Positions 10,691 through 22,490 of a DNA stretch of 64,000 bases are shown piece after piece; within the stretch, counting starts at the first letter, position 1; each line of letters begins with the position of its first letter. The stretch is from NCBI GenBank assembly GCA_964399215.1, contig CAYNPW010000002.1, positions 41,554 through 105,553 of the forward strand, in the 5' to 3' direction. The translations under genes were made by a program, and so were the position numbers. The notes under the pieces were generated by a model. The model saw only the letters and a program-made list of their open reading frames with translations. It was not told the origin of the DNA and did not search any database. This stretch comes from an uncultured Ruminococcus sp. GTDB taxonomy: Bacteria > Bacillota > Clostridia > Oscillospirales > Ruminococcaceae.

Positions 10691-11036
10691 GTGAGCAGGC
10701 TGTACGGTAGCGTGAACGTTAATGTTTATGAGGAAAGTCCGAGCATCGCAGAGCAGGATAGCTGATAACGTCAGCCGAGGGCGACCTCCGAGCAAGTGCA
10801 GCAGAGATATACCGCCGGAATTTTCCGGTAAGGGTGGAAAGGCGGGGTAAGAGCCCACCGGAGCGTCAGAGATGACGCTGCCATGTAAACCTTATCCGAT
10901 GCAACACCAATGGTAGCCGAAAAGTCAATGGCTGCTCGTCAGACTTCAGGCTATAGGTGGCTAGAGCCGTATGGCGACATACGGAGTAGATAGATTACCG
11001 TACTCGACAAAACTCGGCTTACAGGCAGGCTCACTT
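10691..11036 (+). ncRNA. rnpB: RNase P RNA (bacterial)
   Basis: Universal elements are present: GAGGAAAGTCCGAGC, AGGGTGGAAAGGCGGGGTAAGAGCCCACCGG and ACAAAACTCGGCTTACAG. The 5' GTGAGC pairs with the 3' GCTCAC as P1. Ends are approximate. Confidence 0.9.
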
Positions 11037-11047
11037 TACATGAAAAT

Positions 11048-13333: not shown

Positions 13334-13362
13334 TCATACAGATATAAATTTAATATAATTAC

Positions 13363-13636
13363 AAGCTGTGATGAGGAGAGTAATCCGATAGAGCGGTTTA
13401 ACGGCAGTGCTTTGTACAGCCGTCAGCGAGAGCCGAACGGTGAGAGGGCTTGACTGTGAAACGGACGAAGGACACCTCTGAGCTTCCGCCTGACAAAGGG
13501 CGGACGTATTTTCTGCGTTAAGGATTTCGAGTGACTTCGGATAGCTTACGGGCATATGGTTGAGCTTTTTGAGGTAATTAGGGTGGTAACACGGTTATAT
13601 CAGTCGTCCCTTTGTCGGGGCGGCTGTTTTTATTTT
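13363..13636 (+). promoter_or_regulatory. T-box riboswitch leader, specifier most likely GAC (Asp)
   Basis: Stem I elements: GA/K-turn (UGAUGA...UGAG), AGAGUA, AG bulge AGCGAGAG and distal loop GGUGAGAG. The specifier loop reads ...GAAG GAC A directly before the helix CCUC (GAC = 13471..13473). F-box-like GCGUUA is present. The T-box sequence AAUUAGGGUGGUAACACGG is at 13576..13594. The terminator is CAGUCGUCCC/GGGGCGGCUG (13601..13626) plus a U-run. Confidence 0.88.
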
Positions 13637-13649
13637 TGGAAGGTGTATT

Positions 13650-14687
13650 ATGAAAAAGCTTATAAAACCTCATAGCTTAAAAAAAGGTGATAAGGTTGCC
13701 GCAGTAAGCCTGTCGTGGGGCGGAGCAGGCGAGCCCGAGCTTCGCTGGCGGTATGAACAGGGAAAAAAGCGTTTGCAGGAGGTATTCGGGTTAGAGGTCG
13801 TGGAAATGCCCCACACTCTCAGCGGAGATGCTTATCTTCGCGCTCACCCTGAAAAACGTGCCGATGATTTAATGGCGGCATTTTCAGATACGTCGGTTAA
13901 GGGCATTTTCAGTTGTATAGGCGGAGACGACACTGTTCGCTTGCTGCCGTACATAGATTTTAATGTGATAAGGGAAAATCCCAAGGTTTTTATAGGATAT
14001 TCCGATACTACCGTAAATCATTTTATGATGTATAAGGCGGGGCTGACTTCTTTTTACGGCGCAGGAATTTTGCCCGATTTTGCCGAAAATGTCTGTATGC
14101 ACGATTATACAGTCCATTGGATAAACAAAACTCTTTTTGACAATAAGCCTCTCGGGGATATTCCTGCGTCTGACGAGTACGTCTGTCAGTACCTTGAATG
14201 GACGGAGGAAAACAAGAATATAAAACGTCAGACTTCTCCCAACGCAGGTTATGAGATATTGCAGGGCAAAGGCAGGGTCAAAGGACATCTGATAGGCGGC
14301 TGTATTGAAGTCCTTGAAATGTTAAAGGGCACAGAGCTGTTTCCTCCTCTTGAAGATTTTGACGGAGCGATACTTTTTTTGGAAACCAGCGAATGCAGTC
14401 CGAAGCCTGAGTATATAAAATGGTGGCTGATGAATTACGGCGCAATGGGAGTACTCGACAGGATAAACGCGATCATTTTCGGTAAGCCCGCCTATGGAGA
14501 ATATTACAATGAATATAAGACCGAGATAAAAACAATTCTTGCCGAATACGGCAGAGCCGATCTGCCTGTTATGTATAACGCAAGCTTCGGTCACAACGAG
14601 CCGAAATGCTGTCTGCCCTACGGAGCACTTGCTGAGATTGACTGCGGGAACAAAACTTTTTCTGTTCTTGAATCGGGCTGTGTTTAA
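13650..14687 (+). CDS. peptidase S66 family protein (MccF / LD-carboxypeptidase-like serine hydrolase)
   Basis: 345 aa. N-terminal LKKGDKVAAVSLS, then IFSCIGGDD, the nucleophile motif FIGYSDTT, and C-terminal FGHNEP (His). The length class is that of MccF-like members. Confidence 0.8.
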   Translation: MKKLIKPHSLKKGDKVAAVSLSWGGAGEPELRWRYEQGKKRLQEVFGLEVVEMPHTLSGDAYLRAHPEKRADDLMAAFSDTSVKGIFSCIGGDDTVRLLPYIDFNVIRENPKVFIGYSDTTVNHFMMYKAGLTSFYGAGILPDFAENVCMHDYTVHWINKTLFDNKPLGDIPASDEYVCQYLEWTEENKNIKRQTSPNAGYEILQGKGRVKGHLIGGCIEVLEMLKGTELFPPLEDFDGAILFLETSECSPKPEYIKWWLMNYGAMGVLDRINAIIFGKPAYGEYYNEYKTEIKTILAEYGRADLPVMYNASFGHNEPKCCLPYGALAEIDCGNKTFSVLESGCV

Positions 14688-14704
14688 TGGGATAGAAACC
14701 GCTC

Positions 14705-14733
14705 TTGACGAATGTATGAAATTCGGTTATTAT
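14705..14733 (+). promoter_or_regulatory. candidate internal promoter TTGACG-17-TATTAT in front of hisS
   Basis: TTGACG at 14705..14710 and TATTAT at 14728..14733, with a 17 nt spacer, in the 99 nt gap between the S66 gene and hisS. Confidence 0.45.
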
Positions 14734-14786
14734 ATAAGAAACGGGTTCATTGAGGACTTTGAAATACAGAAAGGATATGATATAAA

Positions 14787-16115
14787 ATGGCATTGATAAC
14801 ACAAAGACCAAAGGGTACTAACGACGTTGTTCCAGCGCAGGCTTATAAATGGCACACCGTTGAAAAGCTTGTTGCCGAAACGGCGGAGCAGTACGGCTTT
14901 AAGGAGATAAGAGTTCCTACCTTTGAGGATACGGGACTTTTCGTCCGTTCGGTAGGAGAGACTACCGACGTTGTGCAGAAGGAAATGTATTCCGTTACCG
15001 CCGCAGGAGACGCTAAGTTTACTCTGCGCCCCGAGGGTACGGCAGGCACCATGAGAGCTATGCTTGAAAACGGCATTATGAACGAGGGATTTCCTCAGAA
15101 AGCGTACTACATTTTGTCCTGCTTCAGACACGAAAAGCCGCAGGCAGGACGTCTGAGAGAGTTCCACCAGTTCGGCTGTGAAATGGTAGGTACTGCAAGC
15201 CCGAGAGCGGATGCGGAGGTCATCTCCCTTGCGAAAAACGTTCTGGACAGAGTGGGTCTGAAAAATATTCAGCTCAATATCAATTCTATCGGCTGTCCGA
15301 CCTGCCGCGCTGAGTACCACAAGGCGTTAAAGGAGTATTTCTCAGCCAAGCAGGAGGATATGTGCGATACCTGCAAGGGCAGGCTTGAGAAAAATCCTAT
15401 GAGGATCCTTGACTGCAAGTCTCCGATATGTCAGGGTATCGCCAAGGACGCTCCGCTTATTCTTGACTATCTTTGTAACGAATGCAGGGAGCATTTTGAA
15501 CAGTTACAGAAAAATCTGTCGGTAATGGGTATAGAATTTGAAATAAATCCGAAGATCGTAAGAGGACTTGACTACTACACAAGAACCGTTTTTGAGTTCT
15601 TCACAACGGACATAGGCGCGCAGGGTACAGTCTGCGGAGGCGGACGCTACGACGGACTTATCGAGCAGTTAGGCGGACAGAAAACTCCTGCTCTGGGTTT
15701 TGGTATGGGACTTGAAAGACTTATCCTCACCATGGAAAAGCAGGGCTGCGATTTTATGGAGGCTAAAACCTGCGATCTCTACATTGCATCAATGGGCGAA
15801 ACTGCCGCTGACAGGGCTATGGCGCTTGCTATGGAGCTGCGCGACGAGGGATATTTTGTTGAGTACGATCTGGTAGGCAGAGGTATCAAGCCGCAAATGA
15901 AATATGCGGATAAGATAGGCTCAAAATTTGTTCTTGTTCTGGGCGACAATGAGATCGAGACAGGCGAGGCAAAGCTTAAAAATATGGCGACGGGAGAACA
16001 GACTGACATAAAGCTTGATAACAGCTTTATAGACTGCTTCTCGAATTCTCTCGTAACGGAAATGTTCAAAGGTCTTGACGACGAAATGGCAGGACTTTTA
16101 GGCTCAGATAAGTAG
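14787..16115 (+). CDS. hisS: histidine--tRNA ligase
   Basis: 442 aa with class II motifs (RPKGTND, YSVTAAGD..LRPEGT, FRHEKPQAGRLREFHQFG, GGGRYDGL). Confidence 0.95.
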   Translation: MALITQRPKGTNDVVPAQAYKWHTVEKLVAETAEQYGFKEIRVPTFEDTGLFVRSVGETTDVVQKEMYSVTAAGDAKFTLRPEGTAGTMRAMLENGIMNEGFPQKAYYILSCFRHEKPQAGRLREFHQFGCEMVGTASPRADAEVISLAKNVLDRVGLKNIQLNINSIGCPTCRAEYHKALKEYFSAKQEDMCDTCKGRLEKNPMRILDCKSPICQGIAKDAPLILDYLCNECREHFEQLQKNLSVMGIEFEINPKIVRGLDYYTRTVFEFFTTDIGAQGTVCGGGRYDGLIEQLGGQKTPALGFGMGLERLILTMEKQGCDFMEAKTCDLYIASMGETAADRAMALAMELRDEGYFVEYDLVGRGIKPQMKYADKIGSKFVLVLGDNEIETGEAKLKNMATGEQTDIKLDNSFIDCFSNSLVTEMFKGLDDEMAGLLGSDK

Positions 16116-16125
16116 GAGGAATATT

Positions 16126-16458
16126 ATGGGACTTTATTGTGAAACCTGTAAGATCATTCCCGAGGCGGAAATACCCGACAAGGCGAATTATTTTATAGCA
16201 ATGAAAACGCTGACAGCAATGGTAAATGCAGGCGATATGGAGCTTGTATACGCAAGCTGTCCGTTGGATAATATCTTTGACGAAAAGCAGCAGTTCAGAG
16301 CGCAGAAGTATTTTCATCAGGTAAGATGCAAAGACTGCGGAATGATCTTCGGCGTGTTCTACAACACAAAGGCGGGAGGACAGATAAAAATCAATTCCAA
16401 GATATTTGATCCTGACGACTATTCATTCCTTGACAAGGGAAAAGAGGGTGAGCGGTAA
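16126..16458 (+). CDS. hypothetical Cys-rich (CxxC...CxxC) small protein
   Basis: 110 aa. AGGAGG RBS 5 nt upstream. CETC near the N-terminus and CKDC at about residue 68 suggest a zinc ribbon. The stop overlaps the next start (TAATG). Confidence 0.55.
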   Translation: MGLYCETCKIIPEAEIPDKANYFIAMKTLTAMVNAGDMELVYASCPLDNIFDEKQQFRAQKYFHQVRCKDCGMIFGVFYNTKAGGQIKINSKIFDPDDYSFLDKGKEGER

Positions 16459-16976
16459 TGCTCCCCATATTCCCGAAAAGATACAGCTTTGAGACCCGAC
16501 TTGCTCCCAAAAAGCTCATAAGAAAAATACAGGGAGACCTTGTGGAATACCGTCCAACAATGAATATACTTTCAACAGGCAGGTTTATGAAGAAGTATAA
16601 GCTGGAAAGCGTATACTACGGCAGACACGACGGAAATAGTTTTGAACTGTACTATCACAGAATGAAAAAGCGCGACGGCGGTTCTACGGGATTTTACGGA
16701 AAGATCATCGAGACCGAAAAAGGTACGCTGATAAAGGGCTGGTTCAGAAAGCCTGTGTACGCATATGTCTTTGCGGTCTGCTTTGCTCTGGTGTGCTTAG
16801 TCTGCGCCGTAGGAGCATACGCAGCGCAAGCTGTAACGGGAGCGTATGTTTTTCTTGGACTGGGGCTTGCGGGAGCTTTGCTTTTGCTGTGGGATAACAA
16901 TGAAATATATCTCAGAGCGTATCTTGACGAGCTTAAAGACAGCGGAAAAGAGGGGAAAACTGAACTGAACCGCTGA
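16458..16976 (+). CDS. hypothetical membrane protein (soluble N-domain, two C-terminal TM helices)
   Basis: 172 aa, translationally coupled to the previous ORF. The hydrophobic stretch is VYAYVFAVCFALVCLVCAVGAYAAQAVTGAYVFLGLGLAGALLLLW. Confidence 0.5.
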   Translation: MLPIFPKRYSFETRLAPKKLIRKIQGDLVEYRPTMNILSTGRFMKKYKLESVYYGRHDGNSFELYYHRMKKRDGGSTGFYGKIIETEKGTLIKGWFRKPVYAYVFAVCFALVCLVCAVGAYAAQAVTGAYVFLGLGLAGALLLLWDNNEIYLRAYLDELKDSGKEGKTELNR

Positions 16977-17003
16977 ACTAAACCTATAAAGGAATGATAA
17001 TAA

Positions 17004-17636
17004 ATGCAAAAACCGAAAGGCGGATTTATTTCGTTTATTGTATTCATACTGTTTGCAATAGTTTTGCCGTATTCGATTTTTACGGGCGGAGACAGCTCAG
17101 ATGAATATGAGCAGAGAGGACAGCTTGTGCATTGTACGGTGACCTCCGTGTCTCAAATGGGAAAGCGGCAGTATGTGCAGGGAATATACAGAGATGAAAA
17201 TGATAATCTTATTACTGCGGATATAACCGCCAACAAGCTGGTATCGCTGAGCGATGAATTGGACGGTTACGTCCTGCCTGAAAAGCCCGACAAGGTTTAC
17301 TGTCCTGCTGGTAACGGACTAAAACTGGCGGTATACATATTCGGCGGGTTCTTTGCTCTCATGGGTTGGGGAATCATAATTTTCCAGATTTCAATTCGCC
17401 GAAAGCATCGTTTGCTGTTCAAAAAGGGAATACCCGGCAGAGCGGAAATAGTGGAAAATCCTCAGAAGTGCGGTGATAATTACTCGTCAAAAATGCGGTT
17501 TGTAACCAATGACGGTCGGGAGTTTACAAAGGAATTTGTTTTTACAAAGCATGTTCCTTATCCCGGAAATCAGTATTCCATAGTGTATTATGTCAAGAAA
17601 AACGGCAAATGTATTGCCGATGTTATAGAGCTTTAA
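17004..17636 (+). CDS. membrane protein with two TM-plus-beta-domain modules (DUF3592-like)
   Basis: 210 aa with an AAAGGAA RBS. TM at residues 8-27 and about 110-130. The second domain contains DGREFTKEFVFTKHVPYPG, similar to the 3162..3590 product. Confidence 0.55.
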   Translation: MQKPKGGFISFIVFILFAIVLPYSIFTGGDSSDEYEQRGQLVHCTVTSVSQMGKRQYVQGIYRDENDNLITADITANKLVSLSDELDGYVLPEKPDKVYCPAGNGLKLAVYIFGGFFALMGWGIIIFQISIRRKHRLLFKKGIPGRAEIVENPQKCGDNYSSKMRFVTNDGREFTKEFVFTKHVPYPGNQYSIVYYVKKNGKCIADVIEL

Positions 17637-17661
17637 TTTTTCAGAAAAGGAAGTAATAAAA

Positions 17662-19431
17662 ATGAAACTTGATACAATGAAAGGACTTCGCAGGACACAT
17701 TACTGCGGAGAGGTTCCCGAAACAGAACAGGAAGTCGTAGTATGCGGCTTTGCGGACAGGGTAAGGGATATGGGAAACCTCATCTTTATCAACCTGAGAG
17801 ACAGAACCGGACTTGTTCAGCTTGCTTTCAACGACGAAACTGACAGGGACATTTTTGAAAAGGCGCGGGCTGTAAAAAGCGAATATGTTCTTATGGCAAA
17901 GGGTCAGATACGTCCCCGTGAGAGCGTTAACAATAAGCTTAAAACAGGTAAGATAGAAATTGCCGTAAACGAGCTGAGAATTCTTTCAAGAGCGGAGACT
18001 ACGCCTTTTGAGGTCACAAATTCCGATAAGGTAAACGAGGAATTAAAGCTGAAATACCGCTATCTCGATCTTAGAAATCCCAGACTTCAGAAGAATATTA
18101 TGATGAGACACATGATCGCAAAGTCTGCAAGGGATTATTTCTATGAGAACGGTTTCCTTGAGATAGAAACTCCTATGATGATGAAGTCCACTCCCGAGGG
18201 TGCGAGAGACTACCTTGTGCCGTCGAGAGTTCATCAGGGAAAGTTTTACGCTTTGCCCCAGTCTCCTCAGATATATAAGCAGCTTCTGATGATCTCGGGC
18301 TATGACAGATATGTCCAGCTTGCAAGATGTTTCAGAGACGAGGATCTGAGAGCGGACAGACAGCCTGAGTTCACTCAGATAGACCTTGAGATGTCCTTTG
18401 TGGACGTTGACGACCTGCTTGAAATAGGCGAGGGACTTGTCCATAGGCTTTTCAAGGACGTGCTTGGCGTTGAAATTCCTCTGCCCCTGCCCAGAATGAC
18501 CTTTGCGGACGCTATGAACAAATACGGCTCGGACAAGCCGGACACCCGTTTCGGCATGGAGATTCAGGACATTTCCGACGTTGTAAAGGACATTGATTTT
18601 GTTGTATTCAAGTCCGCTCTGGAAAACGGCGGATCGGTCCGCGCGATCGTTGCGAAGGGCGGAGCGCAGACCTACACGAGAAAAGAGATCGACAAGCTTA
18701 CCGAACACGCAAAGGGTATAGGTGCAAAGGGACTTGCGTATATCCGCTGGGCTGACGAGCCTAACTGCTCTTTCAAAAAGTTTTTGGGAGAGGGCGATCT
18801 GGAGAAGATAACCTCCGCTGTGGGTGCAGAGAAAGGCGACCTTGTTCTTATCTGCGCAGACAAAAACAAGACTGTACTGAGCGTTCTGGGCGCGCTGAGA
18901 CTTATTTGCGGCAAGAGACTTGATATGATTAAGGAGGGCTACAACTTCCTGTGGATAACCGAAATGCCTTTCTTTGAAAAGGACGACGAAACAGGGGAGT
19001 ACATTGCGGCTCATCACCCCTTTACAATGCCTATGGAGGAATGCATAGAGTATCTTGACAGCGATCCCGACAAGGTAAAGGCAAAGGCGTTCGATCTTGT
19101 GCTTAACGGTACGGAGCTGTCCTCGGGTTCAATGAGAATTACAGATTTTGAGTTACAGCAGAAGATGTTCGAGGCGCTGGGAATGTCCGACGAGGAGATA
19201 GATGCTAAGTTCGGCTTCCTTGTAGACGCTTACCGCTATGCGGCTCCTCCTCACGGCGGAATGGGCATAGGTCTTGACAGAATTTCAATGATTATGTGCG
19301 GAGCCGAGTCACTGAGAGACGTTGTGGCGTTCCCAAAGGTGCAGAATGCCGGCGAGCTTATGAGCGCGTGTCCGTCAACCGTTGACGAGAAACAGCTTGA
19401 AGAACTGCATATAAAGACAGTAGGGGAATAA
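17662..19431 (+). CDS. aspS: aspartate--tRNA ligase
   Basis: 589 aa with class IIb motifs (FINLRDRTG, LPQSPQ, FRDEDLRADRQPEFTQID, GGMGIGLDR). Confidence 0.95.
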   Translation: MKLDTMKGLRRTHYCGEVPETEQEVVVCGFADRVRDMGNLIFINLRDRTGLVQLAFNDETDRDIFEKARAVKSEYVLMAKGQIRPRESVNNKLKTGKIEIAVNELRILSRAETTPFEVTNSDKVNEELKLKYRYLDLRNPRLQKNIMMRHMIAKSARDYFYENGFLEIETPMMMKSTPEGARDYLVPSRVHQGKFYALPQSPQIYKQLLMISGYDRYVQLARCFRDEDLRADRQPEFTQIDLEMSFVDVDDLLEIGEGLVHRLFKDVLGVEIPLPLPRMTFADAMNKYGSDKPDTRFGMEIQDISDVVKDIDFVVFKSALENGGSVRAIVAKGGAQTYTRKEIDKLTEHAKGIGAKGLAYIRWADEPNCSFKKFLGEGDLEKITSAVGAEKGDLVLICADKNKTVLSVLGALRLICGKRLDMIKEGYNFLWITEMPFFEKDDETGEYIAAHHPFTMPMEECIEYLDSDPDKVKAKAFDLVLNGTELSSGSMRITDFELQQKMFEALGMSDEEIDAKFGFLVDAYRYAAPPHGGMGIGLDRISMIMCGAESLRDVVAFPKVQNAGELMSACPSTVDEKQLEELHIKTVGE

Positions 19432-19435
19432 TTTT

Positions 19436-19951
19436 ATGCTGAAACTGCGACCGTATAAAGCCTGCGATGCACAGACGATAACAAAGTGGCTGAAAGATGA
19501 AAAGGCTTTCAGATTGTGGAGCGCAGACCGCTATGACAAGTTTCCTGTCACGTCCGATGATATGAACGAGTACTATGACAGAGATAAGCACAACGGAAAT
19601 ATCTGGGGAATGACAGCGTATAATGACAGCGGGATAGTCGGGCATTTCACAATGAGATACCCCGACGGCGTAAGAAACGAGATCAGACTGGGATTTGTTA
19701 TCGTTGACGACAGTAAGCGCAAGCTGGGCTGCGGTAAGGAGATGATCTCTATGGCTGTACGCTATGCATTTGATTTCCTGAAAGCGGATAAGGTCACACT
19801 TGGAGTATTTGAGAATAATATTCCTGCAATAAAATGCTATGAGTCCTGCGGATTTGAAAAGGTGACTTTGGAAAAAACGGAAAGATACGAATGTATGGGC
19901 GAAACATGGAACTGTATCGAAATGCAAATAATGAGAAATAAAAATCATTAG
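19436..19951 (+). CDS. GNAT family N-acetyltransferase (RimJ/RimL-like layout)
   Basis: 171 aa. LKLRPY..CDA..I..W N-terminus. Acetyl-CoA motif region RLGFVIVDDSKRKLGCGKEMISMAVRYAF and NIPAIKCYESCGFEKV. The start is 4 nt after the aspS stop. Confidence 0.8.
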   Translation: MLKLRPYKACDAQTITKWLKDEKAFRLWSADRYDKFPVTSDDMNEYYDRDKHNGNIWGMTAYNDSGIVGHFTMRYPDGVRNEIRLGFVIVDDSKRKLGCGKEMISMAVRYAFDFLKADKVTLGVFENNIPAIKCYESCGFEKVTLEKTERYECMGETWNCIEMQIMRNKNH

Positions 19952-19958
19952 TATTATG

Positions 19959-19992
19959 AAAATGCCGTATTTTTATGATGCGGCATTTTTTA
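19959..19992 (+). terminator. rho-independent terminator ending the hisS-aspS-GNAT unit
   Basis: AAAATGCCG (19959..19967) pairs with CGGCATTTT (19981..19989), continuing into a T-run. Confidence 0.7.
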
Positions 19993-20088
19993 CTAGTCCT
20001 GTCAACCCGCAGTTGCGAAATTTCCAACTCCGATTGGTAGACTTATTCTGTCAAGTCGGGTATAATTAGATCAAGGGAGGCGGTAAGT

Positions 20089-20939
20089 ATGACAATAGGC
20101 GAACAGATACAGAATATCCGTATTCAGAAAGGCTTAACGCAGGAACGGCTTGCGGAAATGCTGGAGGTCTCAAGGCAGTCCGTATCAAAATGGGAGCTTG
20201 GACAGGCTGTGCCCGACGTGGATAAAATTATCCGTATGAGCGAGCTGTTCAACGTTTCAACGGATACGCTTTTATTACGCAATGCCGAAGAGGAGAAGGT
20301 CAACAAAAATCCGCTGCATTTGGGGAGCGTTTACCTTGTGGTCAAAGATTTTGAAAAGTCTGTGGAGTTTTATGAAAAATTTCTCGGAGCAAAGGTTGAC
20401 AACCGCTGCCGCAGCGGAAATAAGTTTGTGAAATTCTACATTGACAGTAAATGCATTGCCCTTATGAATGAGAATAACATTATCGGACATTGCACAGACC
20501 TGAACGTCCGTACAAGTTTGTGCAGAATTACTGGGTAGAGGACCTGCTGACGGAGTACGAACGTGTAAAGGCTCTGAATATAGGCAAGGTAACGGAAATT
20601 CTGGAGGCGTATCCCACGTATCACTATTTTCACCTGACCGATCCTGACAACAATATTATCGAGGTCACAGGAGGTTATCACATGGACGCTAACGTATGTC
20701 AAAGCTGCGGAATGAAAATGCAGACGGGAGATTTCGGCACAAATGCAGACGGCGGAGAAAACAGGGAGTACTGCAAATACTGTTTTGAAAACGGAACATT
20801 TTTAGGCGCGCAGACCCTTGAGGAAAAAATCGAAAGCAACATCAGATTTTGGGTCGATGAACAGAACGGAATAACCGAGGAAATGGCAAGGCAGAAGCTC
20901 CGCGAATTTTTCCCTACTCTTAAACGCTGGAAAAAGTAA
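20089..20939 (+). pseudogene. frameshifted XRE-HTH / VOC (glyoxalase-fold) / zinc-ribbon protein
   Basis: Two overlapping ORFs (20089..20538 and 20490..20939) are in different frames. The VOC domain starts in the first (LGSVYLVVKDFEKSVEFYEKFLG) and continues in the second (YWVEDLLTEYERVKAL..HLTDPDNNIIEVTG). The shift must lie between 20478 and 20538, and there is no homopolymer there. Confidence 0.6.
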
Positions 20940-21078
20940 CGGCACACAGGCACGCTGAATAAATTTCGGTGTGCCTTAGTTGGTTTTTATTGCATTAACA
21001 AAATTTTATGACCGCAACTTACATCAAGAAATTATCCTTTGTTTGTGATATTATATAAAGCAAGGGGAGGTAATAGGA

Positions 21079-21996
21079 TTGTACGAACTGAACGAAGCCA
21101 TTCAGAAAATGATAAACTGGATAGAAGGACATCTTACGGAGGATATGACGCTTCTTCAAATGTCAAAGCAGATAGGTTATTCGCCGTATTATTGTTCTTC
21201 TCAGTTTCACAGAATTTGCGGAATGACGATAAAAAGCTATGTCTCGGGACGCCGTTTAGCGCTGGCGGCTCTTGAGATCAGGGATACGTCAGACAGACTT
21301 ATCGACATTGCCGTAAAGTATGGATTTTCTTCACAGGAGGCTCTGACGAGAGCTTTCCGTTCGTCGTTTGGGTGCACACCTGCTGCATACAGAAAAAATC
21401 CTGTACCGATCCCGCTTTCTATACGAAAGGTCATTTACTTTCCCGAACATTATAAACAGCTTTACAAAGGAGGATCTACAATGAGTGAAACAGTATTAAC
21501 AGAGCCAAGAGTAAGAATGGAATATATCCCCGCGCATAAGTATATAGGCATATGGGACGATAAGGTTTCTTGCTACTGTGAATTCTGGGACAATCACAAC
21601 TGCGATGAAGTCTGCGGGATAATTGACAGCCTGAGTAATGTCAGCGATCCTATCATTACAGGGCACACCGCAGGCTGGTATTATAATGACGGCGGAGAAC
21701 GCAGATATTTTTACGGAACGGGCGTACCGGCTGATTACAGCGGTGAAATTCCCAAGGGCTTTGATGTAAGGGAGATACCTGCAAGCTATTATCTTGTTTT
21801 TTATCATCCCCCGTATGATTTTATGAATGACAACGGTCAGGTCATGGCAAGAGTTGAAAACCTTGCTTGGAATTACGATATTGACAAGGAATGCAAAGCC
21901 AGATACATCTGGAATGAGGACGCTTGTCAATGCTATCAGAGACATTATCCCGAGGGTATCGGATACGAGGTACTCAGACCTATAAAGATGAAATAA
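21079..21996 (+). CDS. AraC-family regulator with GyrI-like effector-binding domain
   Basis: N-terminal AraC HTH pair (MSKQIGYSPYYCSSQFHRICGMT...KYGFSSQEALTRAFRSSFGCTPAAYRK) plus a C-terminal small-molecule-binding module of about 170 aa. TTG start after GGGGAGG. Confidence 0.8.
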   Translation: MYELNEAIQKMINWIEGHLTEDMTLLQMSKQIGYSPYYCSSQFHRICGMTIKSYVSGRRLALAALEIRDTSDRLIDIAVKYGFSSQEALTRAFRSSFGCTPAAYRKNPVPIPLSIRKVIYFPEHYKQLYKGGSTMSETVLTEPRVRMEYIPAHKYIGIWDDKVSCYCEFWDNHNCDEVCGIIDSLSNVSDPIITGHTAGWYYNDGGERRYFYGTGVPADYSGEIPKGFDVREIPASYYLVFYHPPYDFMNDNGQVMARVENLAWNYDIDKECKARYIWNEDACQCYQRHYPEGIGYEVLRPIKMK

Positions 21997-22004
21997 TAAA
22001 ATTC

Positions 22005-22040
22005 GGGCGCAGAGGATAACTTCTGCGCCCTTTAATTTTA
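22005..22040. terminator. bidirectional terminator between convergent regulators
   Basis: GGGCGCAGA (22005..22013) pairs with TCTGCGCCC (22022..22030), then TTTAATTTT. Confidence 0.75.
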
Positions 22041-22490
22041 TGCGTCTCCTTTATTCCAATGCTCCAGCTTAGGAATGATACCTTCAAAATACTCTCTTGC
22101 CTTTTCTGGCGGAAAATCCTCGTTCGACATATGTTGCGCAAGAAAGTCCAGAATGTCGTCTAAGGATTTGTATACAAATTCTCCGCCTGTATAGCACCAT
22201 TTGCAGTAGCTTTCGTTAAAGCACCCGTCAGGCTCACGGCTTATGGCGCTGTCGTCGTCAAGGGGCATTCCGCAGCATTGGCATATGAGCTTCCTGGGAG
22301 AGCCCAACAGCGTGTTTATTGAAACATCAAAGATATTTGAGATAGTCTTGAGTGTTTCAGGATTTGGCGTGGTTTCGCCGTTTTCCCAGCGGGATACCGC
22401 CTGTCTGGTCACACAAAGCTTCTGTGCCATTTCGTCCTGAGACAGATCGTTTTTGAGCCTGATATTTTTTAATACTTCGGTGGTGTTCAT
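22038..22490 (-). CDS. XRE-family HTH protein with C-terminal putative zinc-ribbon domain
   Basis: HTH: LSQDEMAQKLCVTRQAVSRWENGETTP. C-terminal CQCCGMPL...YCKWCY, paralogous to the C-terminus of the 20089..20939 gene. Confidence 0.8.
   Translation of the reverse strand: MNTTEVLKNIRLKNDLSQDEMAQKLCVTRQAVSRWENGETTPNPETLKTISNIFDVSINTLLGSPRKLICQCCGMPLDDDSAISREPDGCFNESYCKWCYTGGEFVYKSLDDILDFLAQHMSNEDFPPEKAREYFEGIIPKLEHWNKGDA

Follow-up and report, generated by a model that had tools for sequence, protein, structure and literature searches.

An aspartate T-box hisS-aspS operon with an S66 peptidase and a GNAT acetyltransferase gained in one gut Ruminococcus-like lineage

The stretch of DNA analyzed here (64,000 nucleotides, hereafter the window) contains a hisS-aspS operon preceded by a T-box leader. 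The bacterium is Ruminococcus/Hominimerdicola-like, and the locus is probably its conserved hisS-aspS operon under T-box(Asp) control, in which two functional accessory genes were gained in one sub-lineage through precise insertions at sites that are variable among relatives. The T-box-hisS-aspS core is an already known type of operon, and this arrangement has been described before (PMC7927825; PMC2494555). An S66 peptidase gene at the front of the operon and a GNAT acetyltransferase gene at its end are specific to a single gut Ruminococcus-like lineage. The anatomy of the operon, the homologies of its genes, the history of the insertions and the purifying selection on both accessory genes are shown by the data. 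A preliminary description of the locus had read it as an antibiotic-defence operon built around aspS; the comparison with relatives gives this reading little support.

The leader (13359..13636; this and all other features discussed below are on the + strand) was identified by a match to the Rfam family RF00230 covering 13359..13614, with a score of 95.6 bits (gathering score 93). It ends in an intrinsic terminator, whose stem (13601..13626) is followed by a U-run extending to 13636 (-17.9 kcal/mol, z -4.75). Homologous T-boxes are present at the same position in L001, L002, L003, L013 and L016. The specifier codon, located from its position in the Rfam alignment, is GAC (Asp, 13471..13473) and is followed by the conserved purine A13474. 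GAC is invariant in the 18 relatives that were aligned and the base after it is A or G; this pattern excludes an overlapping CAC (His) reading of the specifier. The leader had been described as a sensor of tRNA-Asp, and the invariant Asp specifier supports this. Just 5' of the leader, a TATAAT hexamer read from the sequence (13354..13359) is a possible -10 element of an upstream promoter, P1, that would feed the leader. TATAAT- or TATATT-like motifs are found at the same place in the aligned relatives; no -35 element was identified.

Seven open reading frames follow the leader on the same strand, with gaps of 99, 10, -1, 27, 25 and 4 nt; these gaps had been given exactly in the preliminary description, which counted eight genes. 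Behind the S66 gene comes hisS (histidine--tRNA ligase, 14787..16115; TIGR00442, 511.8 bits for a cut-off of 286.75), which is syntenic in relatives. Three small genes without family matches separate it from aspS. The first, unk1 (16126..16458), encodes a small Cys-rich protein of 110 aa with two CxxC motifs and no Pfam or NCBIfam match; about 25 related species keep it in the hisS-aspS interval (dN/dS 0.06-0.07). The second, unk2 (16458..16976), whose 172-aa product is hydrophobic in its C-terminal half, is kept at this place in about 40 species (dN/dS 0.08-0.10); it has 45 homologue clusters, and a source is named for only a few of them, in each case Ruminococcus. The third, unk3 (17004..17636), encodes a membrane-type protein of 210 aa found only in the wider lineage of the window (L179, L082, L181-L185 and L003; dN/dS 0.14-0.22). 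The aspS gene (17662..19431) encodes an aspartate--tRNA ligase of the bacterial type with a GAD domain (NF001750, 802 bits). Its orthologues are 77-92% identical and in conserved synteny in 80 species, and the copy in the window is single, an ordinary syntenic housekeeping gene. Between the T-box and the end of the GNAT gene, the pattern scan gave no convincing internal terminator, which agrees with the earlier claim: its only matches, at 14550 and 18748, are weak and lie in coding regions, and the region as a whole gives a number of matches within shuffle expectation. The transcription unit is closed by an intrinsic terminator (19958..19996) that the pattern scan missed and that was detected by folding: a hairpin with a 14-bp stem (19958..19990), then U's (-17.4 kcal/mol, z -5.7). 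The genes of the operon are presumably co-transcribed.

The S66 gene (13650..14687, 345 aa; Pfam PF02016 and PF17676) starts 13 nt past the U-run of the leader terminator. Its product matches PDB 5F5X (BA3275) over its full length (E 7e-135); it matches the MccF of E. coli and of B. anthracis with E of about 1e-30, compared to partial matches at 2e-8 for LdcA-type chains. The catalytic triad is kept (Ser118/His315/Glu245), and W184 aligns with Trp186 of MccF, which is the adenine-stacking residue (PMC8323819). The MccF-like assignment made earlier is therefore upheld and, from these homologies, the protein is placed among the serine hydrolases of the MccF-like branch, in the BA3275 subfamily. 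Its identity to validated MccF is 28%. The MccF residues N220, R246 and K247, which presumably make contacts to the acidic side chain, align with E220, E248 and C249. The BA3275-type family is highly conserved, with 60-66% identity across Bacillota for a length of about 345 aa, and dN/dS for the S66 gene ranges from 0.07 to 0.12. A literature search found no published activity for this subfamily. In 80 loci holding S66 orthologues, hisS, aspS and T-box motifs were all absent and no neighbouring gene was conserved; a Rfam T-box was present in none of 20 such loci.

The GNAT gene (19436..19951, 171 aa, Pfam Acetyltransf_3) was correctly reported to start 4 nt past the aspS stop with its ribosome-binding site inside aspS, where the Shine-Dalgarno motif AGGGGA is seen; it is translationally coupled to aspS. 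The protein had tentatively been considered RimJ/RimL-like. In a PDB profile search it groups with the AAC(6')-annotated 6ERD/8Q6U, with 3OWC and with SpeG, and neither RimL nor MccE is present among its best 60 matches. Comparison with MccE gives no significant similarity by BLASTP and a probability of 0.7% with hhalign. These results place it outside the RimL/MccE2 type and contradict the tentative assignment; by its profile the protein is a SpeG/AAC(6')-like acetyltransferase, resembling SpeG and 6ERD. Its orthologues (65-70% identical) occur in unrelated contexts (fucose, glycosyltransferase, trp/SIR2), and its dN/dS is 0.06-0.15.

The distribution of the two accessory genes among relatives was then compared to that of the core. 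The synteny minD-mgsA-(T-box)-hisS-(unk1-unk2)-aspS is conserved in 80 related species genomes (Ruminococcus/Hominimerdicola relatives); none of the 80 has an S66 gene at the operon, and none has the GNAT of the window there. Both genes, in the full arrangement, are shared by contigs L179 and L082 of the window's own lineage, and S66 is also found in a third contig of this lineage, L001, which ends after it. In the nearest sister lineage (L181-L184, aspS 95% identical in amino acids) the operon is T-box-hisS-unk1-3-aspS with its own terminator, and lacks S66 and GNAT. The arrangement is thus largely not conserved in relatives. This, like the grouping of the GNAT with SpeG and AAC(6')-annotated enzymes, speaks against the preliminary description by its own standards. 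The S66 orthologues are never linked to aminoacyl-tRNA synthetase genes or T-boxes, and the GNAT orthologues lie in other contexts. By blastn, the boundaries of the inserts relative to L181 are 13632-14763 and 19435-22049. The second insert, seen in blastn comparisons with L181 and L179, is a lineage-specific block of 2.6 kb (19435..22049); at its place the sister lineage has a 76-nt region with the terminator of aspS. GNAT is its first gene, followed by an HTH-glyoxalase-Zn-ribbon regulator gene, frameshifted in the window, and by an AraC-type regulator gene; the terminator behind GNAT is not the same as the one behind aspS in L181. Both sites are variable. Among the 80 species genomes, 9 carry DUF218 in the slot past the T-box terminator, as does contig L185; L016 has a different GNAT there, L003 only the spacer, and in many others the slot is empty. 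The gene 3' of aspS differs in nearly every species. Three lineages each have a different GNAT within the hisS-aspS operon, for a background of at most 3 in 150 size-matched ORFs, so that insertion may not be entirely random.

The spacer between S66 and hisS (14698..14786) has a homologous counterpart ahead of hisS in relatives, the match to L002 and L003 resuming at 14698 (blastn); in relatives having DUF218 it is also the 3' end of that ORF. Besides the hisS ribosome-binding site, this 99-nt spacer contains P2 (TTGACG-17-TATTAT, 14705..14733), the best sigma-70-like match of the region (10/12). No stable RNA structure was found in the spacer by folding. In many relatives the P2 hexamers are kept ahead of hisS, with a diverging sequence between them; the T-box is therefore probably not the only head of the unit, and the earlier claim of a tRNA-Asp sensor heading the whole unit holds for the leader's position at the front. 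We propose that transcription would start upstream of the leader, that uncharged tRNA-Asp would pair with the GAC specifier and stabilize the antiterminator, and that readthrough of the 13601..13636 terminator would extend into S66, then hisS, the three small genes, aspS and GNAT, up to the 3' terminator. P2, a putative promoter, would probably supply basal expression independent of the T-box from hisS through GNAT. Since S66 lies downstream of the T-box terminator and upstream of P2, it would be the only gene depending wholly on the tRNA-Asp signal.

Most likely, the placement of S66 and GNAT reflects insertion-tolerant sites rather than a dedicated module against AspRS inhibitors. Two insertions into variable sites best account for the claimed bracketing of aspS by two detoxifying enzymes, and a functional link between the accessory genes and AspRS inhibitors is probably absent. 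Against a view of pure cargo, purifying selection acts on both genes (dN/dS near 0.1, with dS reaching 0.8), both insertions preserve the co-transcription layout, the old aspS terminator being gone, and both genes were gained on the same branch. Full gating of S66 by tRNA-Asp charging, with the MccF triad and Trp, is indeed what would be expected of an inducible defence against AspRS inhibitors. It is possible, if unlikely, that S66 alone is such a detoxifier and GNAT unrelated cargo: a microcin C-like aspartyl-adenylate mimic would inhibit AspRS, uncharged tRNA-Asp would cause T-box readthrough, and S66 would cleave the inhibitor while AspRS is also raised. Stand-alone homologues of MccF are able to make cells McC-resistant (PMC8323819), and the selection on S66 is in keeping with such a role; on the other side stand the low identity to MccF in a subfamily whose activity we found nowhere published, the replaced N220/R246/K247, the unlinked orthologues and the DUF218 or empty slots of relatives. 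We hold it somewhat more doubtful still that S66 serves amino-acid supply, as a carboxypeptidase or amidase (the activities of S66 enzymes according to Pfam) that would free aspartate, or some other amino acid in short supply, from peptides or from fragments of the cell wall; its T-box(Asp) control would then have the same reason as that of transporter and biosynthetic genes. T-box regulons often hold amino-acid supply genes (PMC2494555), and strict tRNA-Asp gating would fit, but the 80 S66 orthologues have neither T-box nor amino-acid-metabolism context and the slot contents of relatives (DUF218, GNAT, none) are unconnected with aspartate. A two-enzyme defence against aminoacyl-adenylate antibiotics, by hydrolysis and alpha-amino acetylation around the target aspS under a tRNA-Asp sensor, is very improbable: both superfamilies include known McC-immunity proteins (PMC8323819) and both genes, selected and presumably co-transcribed with aspS, were gained in the same lineage, but this co-gain is one phylogenetic event without statistical weight, GNAT falls outside the RimL/MccE2 type, came alongside two regulators and has orthologues in unrelated contexts, and no other genome examined has S66 and GNAT near synthetase genes.

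As in the hisS-aspS operon of Bacillota (for example Staphylococcus aureus and Bacillus subtilis), hisS and aspS share a strand and lie behind a T-box leader that ends in an intrinsic terminator, coupling synthetase expression to tRNA charging (PMC7927825; PMC2494555). The window differs by its Asp (GAC) specifier, the S. aureus leader being described as a histidine T-box; by two to three small genes between hisS and aspS; by S66 between leader and hisS and GNAT joined at the 3' end; and by the conserved promoter-like element past the leader terminator. With the immunity enzymes of the E. coli mcc cluster, MccF (S66) and MccE2/RimL (GNAT), the window shares the two superfamilies and, for S66, the Ser-His-Glu residues and the Trp aligned with W186. 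Unlike that cluster, in which the MccF and MccE genes are adjacent (L168), it has an S66 of another subfamily, a GNAT without specific similarity to MccE2 or RimL, no mccA, mccB or mccC, and 4.7 kb with the synthetase operon between the two genes. S66 is also comparable to the BA3275-type "MccC family proteins" of Bacillus anthracis (PDB 5F5X, 5F9M, 5F1Y, 5JYB), structures for which our literature search found no published function; their genes are stand-alone, the window's lineage being the only one with a T-box in front. Auxiliary or antibiotic-insensitive synthetase paralogues under T-box control, e.g. thrZ, tyrZ and ileS2, are protective genes turned on by loss of charging, including inhibition of the main synthetase. 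There a second synthetase is induced, whereas the window, with its one housekeeping aspS, would induce a hydrolase.

The locus consists of seven ORFs on the + strand: an S66 peptidase gene (13650..14687; PF02016 and PF17676), hisS (14787..16115; TIGR00442, 512 bits), three small ORFs, unk1 (16126..16458), unk2 (16458..16976) and unk3 (17004..17636), aspS (17662..19431; NF001750, 802 bits) and a GNAT acetyltransferase gene (19436..19951; best Pfam model Acetyltransf_3). The gaps between successive ORFs are 99, 10, -1, 27, 25 and 4 nt. The preliminary description had described eight same-strand genes with short gaps; strand and gaps are exact, but the number of ORFs is seven. GNAT starts 4 nt past the stop codon of aspS and has its Shine-Dalgarno sequence, AGGGGA, within that gene, and the unit ends with a 14-bp hairpin and U-run at 19958..19996 (-17.4 kcal/mol, z -5.7), which confirms two features already read by eye. 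That no other terminator precedes the end of the unit also holds: between the two terminators only weak terminator-like matches were found, all in coding regions, and their total does not exceed that of shuffled sequence. A single T-box precedes hisS and aspS, which share one orientation and are not separated by a terminator.

The T-box leader proposed at the head of the locus is indeed present. It is complete, at 13359..13614, and matches the full Rfam model RF00230 (positions 1-219) with 95.6 bits, for a curated gathering score of 93 bits. In the Rfam alignment, the T-box motif falls on AGGGUGGUAACACG and the specifier loop is GAA-G-GAC-A (13467..13474). When the leaders of the window and of 17 relatives were aligned, GAC was invariant in all 18 and the next base was either A or G; the specifier is therefore GAC (Asp), and the overlapping CAC (His) reading of GACAC was rejected. 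Judged from these alignments, the leader is predicted to sense tRNA-Asp, as had been claimed. A G+C-rich stem of 10 bp at 13601..13626, with a U-run behind it, makes up the leader's terminator (-17.9 kcal/mol, z -4.75), so that the predicted elements for competition between the T-box sequence/antiterminator and an intrinsic terminator are both found in the window leader.

The suggestion that this sensor stands at the head of the entire unit applies to S66, which lies behind the T-box, but less well to the genes from hisS to GNAT, which have a putative promoter of their own. The best sigma-70-like match of the region, TTGACG-17-TATTAT (14705..14733), is located in the spacer between S66 and hisS (14698..14786), for which folding gave no stable structure. 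Among relatives this element has the consensus CTTGACGAATG...GGTTATTATATA and is situated past the leader terminator and ahead of hisS, in an interval hereafter called the slot, whether or not a gene is present there. It occurs at the same position in L002, L003, L013, L014, L018, L023-L027, L034 and L082 (loci of relatives), its hexamers being kept and its 17-nt spacer diverging; blastn comparison showed it to be absent from L181, of the nearest sister lineage. The spacer of the window is homologous to the 3' end of DUF218 genes, whose ORFs terminate inside the promoter-like element, and many species without any slot gene also retain the DUF218-homologous segment ahead of hisS. As the hexamers are kept in such species, we treat the segment 14698..14786 as a probable promoter into which DUF218 ORFs read. 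S66 has likely taken the place of DUF218. With such a promoter, the genes from hisS to GNAT would be under dual control, by basal T-box-independent transcription and by T-box read-through, and S66 alone would depend wholly on read-through.

The distribution of the arrangement among relatives was analyzed with AspRS as query against one genome per GTDB species. This gave 80 loci (aspS 77-92% identical) from Ruminococcus, Hominimerdicola and related Oscillospiraceae, with which all window proteins were compared by tblastn. The core minD-mgsA-hisS-aspS is kept across the 80 loci. The approximately 40 species nearest to the window have a T-box behind mgsA and the same T-box-hisS-aspS core, and their hisS-aspS interval holds one or two small genes, homologous to 16126..16458 and 16458..16976. 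The R. flavefaciens group (L044-L081) has neither the T-box nor the small genes, and its mgsA-hisS gap is only about 70 nt (e.g. L058:8586-8659); even within the genus, then, some species lack the T-box. A NUDIX hydrolase gene of L058 (11766-12224) begins 11 nt past aspS. Neither the S66 gene nor a GNAT of the window type was found by tblastn in any of the 80 species genomes.

Recent history was resolved through exact-protein look-ups in metagenome assemblies, in which the window AspRS itself matched no contig. The whole arrangement is shared with two loci of the same lineage, L179 and L082 (AspRS 96% identical), the former also sharing the genes downstream of GNAT; a further contig, L001, shows mgsA-T-box-S66 and then ends. 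The sister lineage L181-L184 (AspRS 95%) has T-box-hisS-unk1-unk2-unk3-aspS with its own terminator, and neither S66 nor GNAT; in L185 leader and hisS are separated by a DUF218 gene. Compared with L181 by blastn, the window contains two clean extra segments: 13632..14763, i.e. S66 and a 66-nt spacer segment, and 19435..22049, which replaces a 76-nt terminator region and holds GNAT, an HTH-glyoxalase-zinc-ribbon regulator and an AraC regulator. Since both genes are present in L179 and L082 and absent from L181-L184, S66 and GNAT were inserted on one recent branch, and a conserved S66-aspS-GNAT arrangement is contradicted by the sister lineage as well as by the 80 species genomes. GC and GC3 of S66 and GNAT are unremarkable, and a foreign base composition was rejected for both. 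Two side observations concern the surroundings. The HTH-glyoxalase/bleomycin-resistance-fold-zinc-ribbon regulator (20089..20939), a single 283-aa ORF in L179, is split in the window by a frameshift near codon 140 into overlapping ORFs (20089..20538 and 20490..20939), and is either a pseudogene or the product of a sequencing error. The bacterial class A RNase P RNA at 10692..11037 (257.5 bits) is kept in L002 and L003, in the latter in opposite orientation, which indicates local rearrangements upstream of minD.

The three small ORFs were without a match in Pfam and NCBIfam, even with the E threshold relaxed to 10. unk1 encodes a 110-aa CxxC...CxxC protein, homologues of which occupy the hisS-aspS interval in about 25 of the loci L002-L056. 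The 172-aa product of unk2 is hydrophobic in its C-terminal half and has homologues at this place in about 40 of them; its family comprises only 45 clusters, the few named ones being Ruminococcus. Purifying selection acts on both (dN/dS 0.06-0.10). The third (210 aa, two hydrophobic segments) is present only in the wider lineage of the window (L003:7954-8646, L179, L181-L185) and evolves fast, with 58% identity between lineages whose AspRS are 95% identical and a dN/dS of about 0.2. At the same place L003 has two further membrane or zinc-ribbon ORFs.

Both inserted genes occupy positions whose content varies widely. In 9 of the 80 species genomes (L002, L006, L007, L009, L010, L011, L017, L052 and L055) the slot contains a DUF218/YdcF-like gene, identified in L006 with a Pfam E of 7e-27. 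In L016 it contains an unrelated 150-aa GNAT (L016:6993-7445), in L003 the spacer alone, and in many other relatives it is empty. The interval before aspS holds another GNAT in L041, a DUF2130 gene in L042 and membrane proteins in L003, L052 and L055, and the gene 3' of aspS differs in almost every species. From the variability of the slot and of the post-aspS position it follows that S66 and GNAT of the window sit where the operon commonly accepts foreign genes. Given the predicted leader, any gene in the slot would be expressed only on tRNA-Asp limitation. GNATs in the operon were sought with an iterative HMM. Three, of different subfamilies (SA2161-like, YjaB-like and SpeG/6ERD-like), lie within it in three lineages (L016:6993-7445, L041:9454-9972 and window 19436..19951), for a background by Pfam scan of at most 3 of 150 size-matched ORFs (at most 2%). 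GNATs may thus be in excess in the operon; given the small sample and a background made up largely of core genes, we claim no significance. In a fourth lineage a phosphinothricin-acetyltransferase-like GNAT lies behind the aspS terminator (L002:11860-12402).

The S66 protein had been described as MccF-like. In fold, in catalytic triad and in being closer to MccF than to LdcA this is correct, but the identity with MccF is low and another subfamily is nearer. The full-length match is to B. anthracis BA3275 (PDB 5F5X and others, E 7e-135), whose 5F5X-type entries were deposited under the name "MccC family protein"; next come E. coli and B. anthracis MccF, with E about 1e-30, and LdcA-type PDB chains give partial matches only, at 2e-8 or weaker. 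LdcA identity was rejected, the equivalog model NF008424 scoring 63.5 bits for a cut-off of 378. In a direct comparison with MccF from the E. coli mcc cluster (L168) the two proteins are 28% identical. MccF Ser118, His311 and Glu243 align with S118, H315 and E245 of the window protein, which are invariant in the family, and E220, E248 and C249 stand at the positions of MccF N220, R246 and K247. The L-INS-i multiple alignment places the invariant W184 in the column of MccF Trp186, which stacks on the adenine of the substrate (PMC8323819). Pairwise BLASTP instead pairs W184 with MccF W179, and the correspondence with Trp186 is therefore only suggestive. On these alignments S66 is not an orthologue of validated MccF, its closest relatives forming the BA3275 subfamily, which is large and strongly conserved (60-66% identity across Bacillota). 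Literature searches returned nothing on BA3275, nor on 6ERD or 8Q6U. Around the S66 orthologues of 80 metagenomic loci we found neither hisS nor aspS and no T-box motif; neighbouring genes do not recur, their largest cluster having 3 members, and an Rfam search of 20 of these loci gave no T-box. An association of S66 with aminoacyl-tRNA synthetase genes elsewhere is thus not borne out, and the link between S66, T-box and synthetase is unique to the lineage of the window. A homologue with 27% identity (hits H28/H29) lies on a 44-kb Agrobacterium radiobacter plasmid of pAgK84 size (NC_006277.2, 40415-41386), the agrocin 84 plasmid. Agrocin 84 is an adenylate mimic that targets LeuRS, and this homologue could be another S66 immunity gene.

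For GNAT, the proposed RimJ/RimL-like assignment did not survive profile searches. The fold is that of PF13302 (Acetyltransf_3; E 1.4e-15, residues 2-141), a broad family that is not RimL-specific; the RimL-like motif seen by eye reflects this family rather than the RimL/MccE2 subfamily. The best PDB relatives are 6ERD/8Q6U (annotated as aminoglycoside N6'-acetyltransferase; 85 bits), then 3OWC, then many SpeG, with no RimL or MccE chain among the best 60 PDB profile hits. BLASTP against full-length MccE was not significant, hhalign against MccE2 (residues 405-589) aligned only 18 columns of motif A with a probability of 0.7%, and no NCBIfam model reached its cut-off; a RimL/MccE2 subfamily was rejected. 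Orthologues are 65-70% identical, the few named ones belonging to Lachnospiraceae or Hominifimenecus, and their contexts are diverse: a fucose-utilisation cluster, a glycosyltransferase with a LytTR system, and SIR2 and trp genes.

Among the window, L179, L082 and L001, at dS 0.35-0.88, dN/dS is 0.07-0.12 for S66 and 0.06-0.15 for GNAT, compared with 0.03-0.05 for the synthetases in the same sequence set. These low values indicate that both genes have been maintained by selection since acquisition and are useful, and do not specify their function. We consider it probable that functional cargo landed at insertion-tolerant sites of a synthetase operon. If so, an essential riboswitch-controlled synthetase operon tolerates insertions at defined points, namely 3' of the leader terminator, in the hisS-aspS interval and downstream of aspS, and the gene order of one genome is a poor guide to function. 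An MccF-like hydrolase has been placed, and kept, where it would be expressed only with uncharged tRNA-Asp. That this placement constitutes an inducible response to AspRS inhibitors is improbable in our view: an antibiotic mimicking aspartyl-adenylate would block AspRS, uncharged tRNA-Asp would open the leader, and the opened leader would switch on the hydrolase in a dedicated slot before the synthetase genes. It is likewise improbable that the T-box serves more generally as a sensor of target inhibition, with S66 in a cargo slot and with DUF218, the other slot GNAT and the operon-embedded GNATs as further protective enzymes gated by tRNA charging. The aminoacyl-adenylate antibiotic defence operon built around aspS, as the preliminary description had it, fails on conservation in relatives and on the GNAT subfamily, and the contexts of the S66 and GNAT families lend it no support.

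Were S66 indeed induced by AspRS inhibition, the BA3275 subfamily of S66 peptidases, a large group with solved structures, would gain a function, and this would be the first T-box to gate an antibiotic-detoxifying enzyme, as opposed to a synthetase, transporter or biosynthetic gene. As for insertion of cargo, which we favour, the core that received it is an operon of a known kind, T-box-controlled hisS-aspS, described in S. aureus (PMC7927825).
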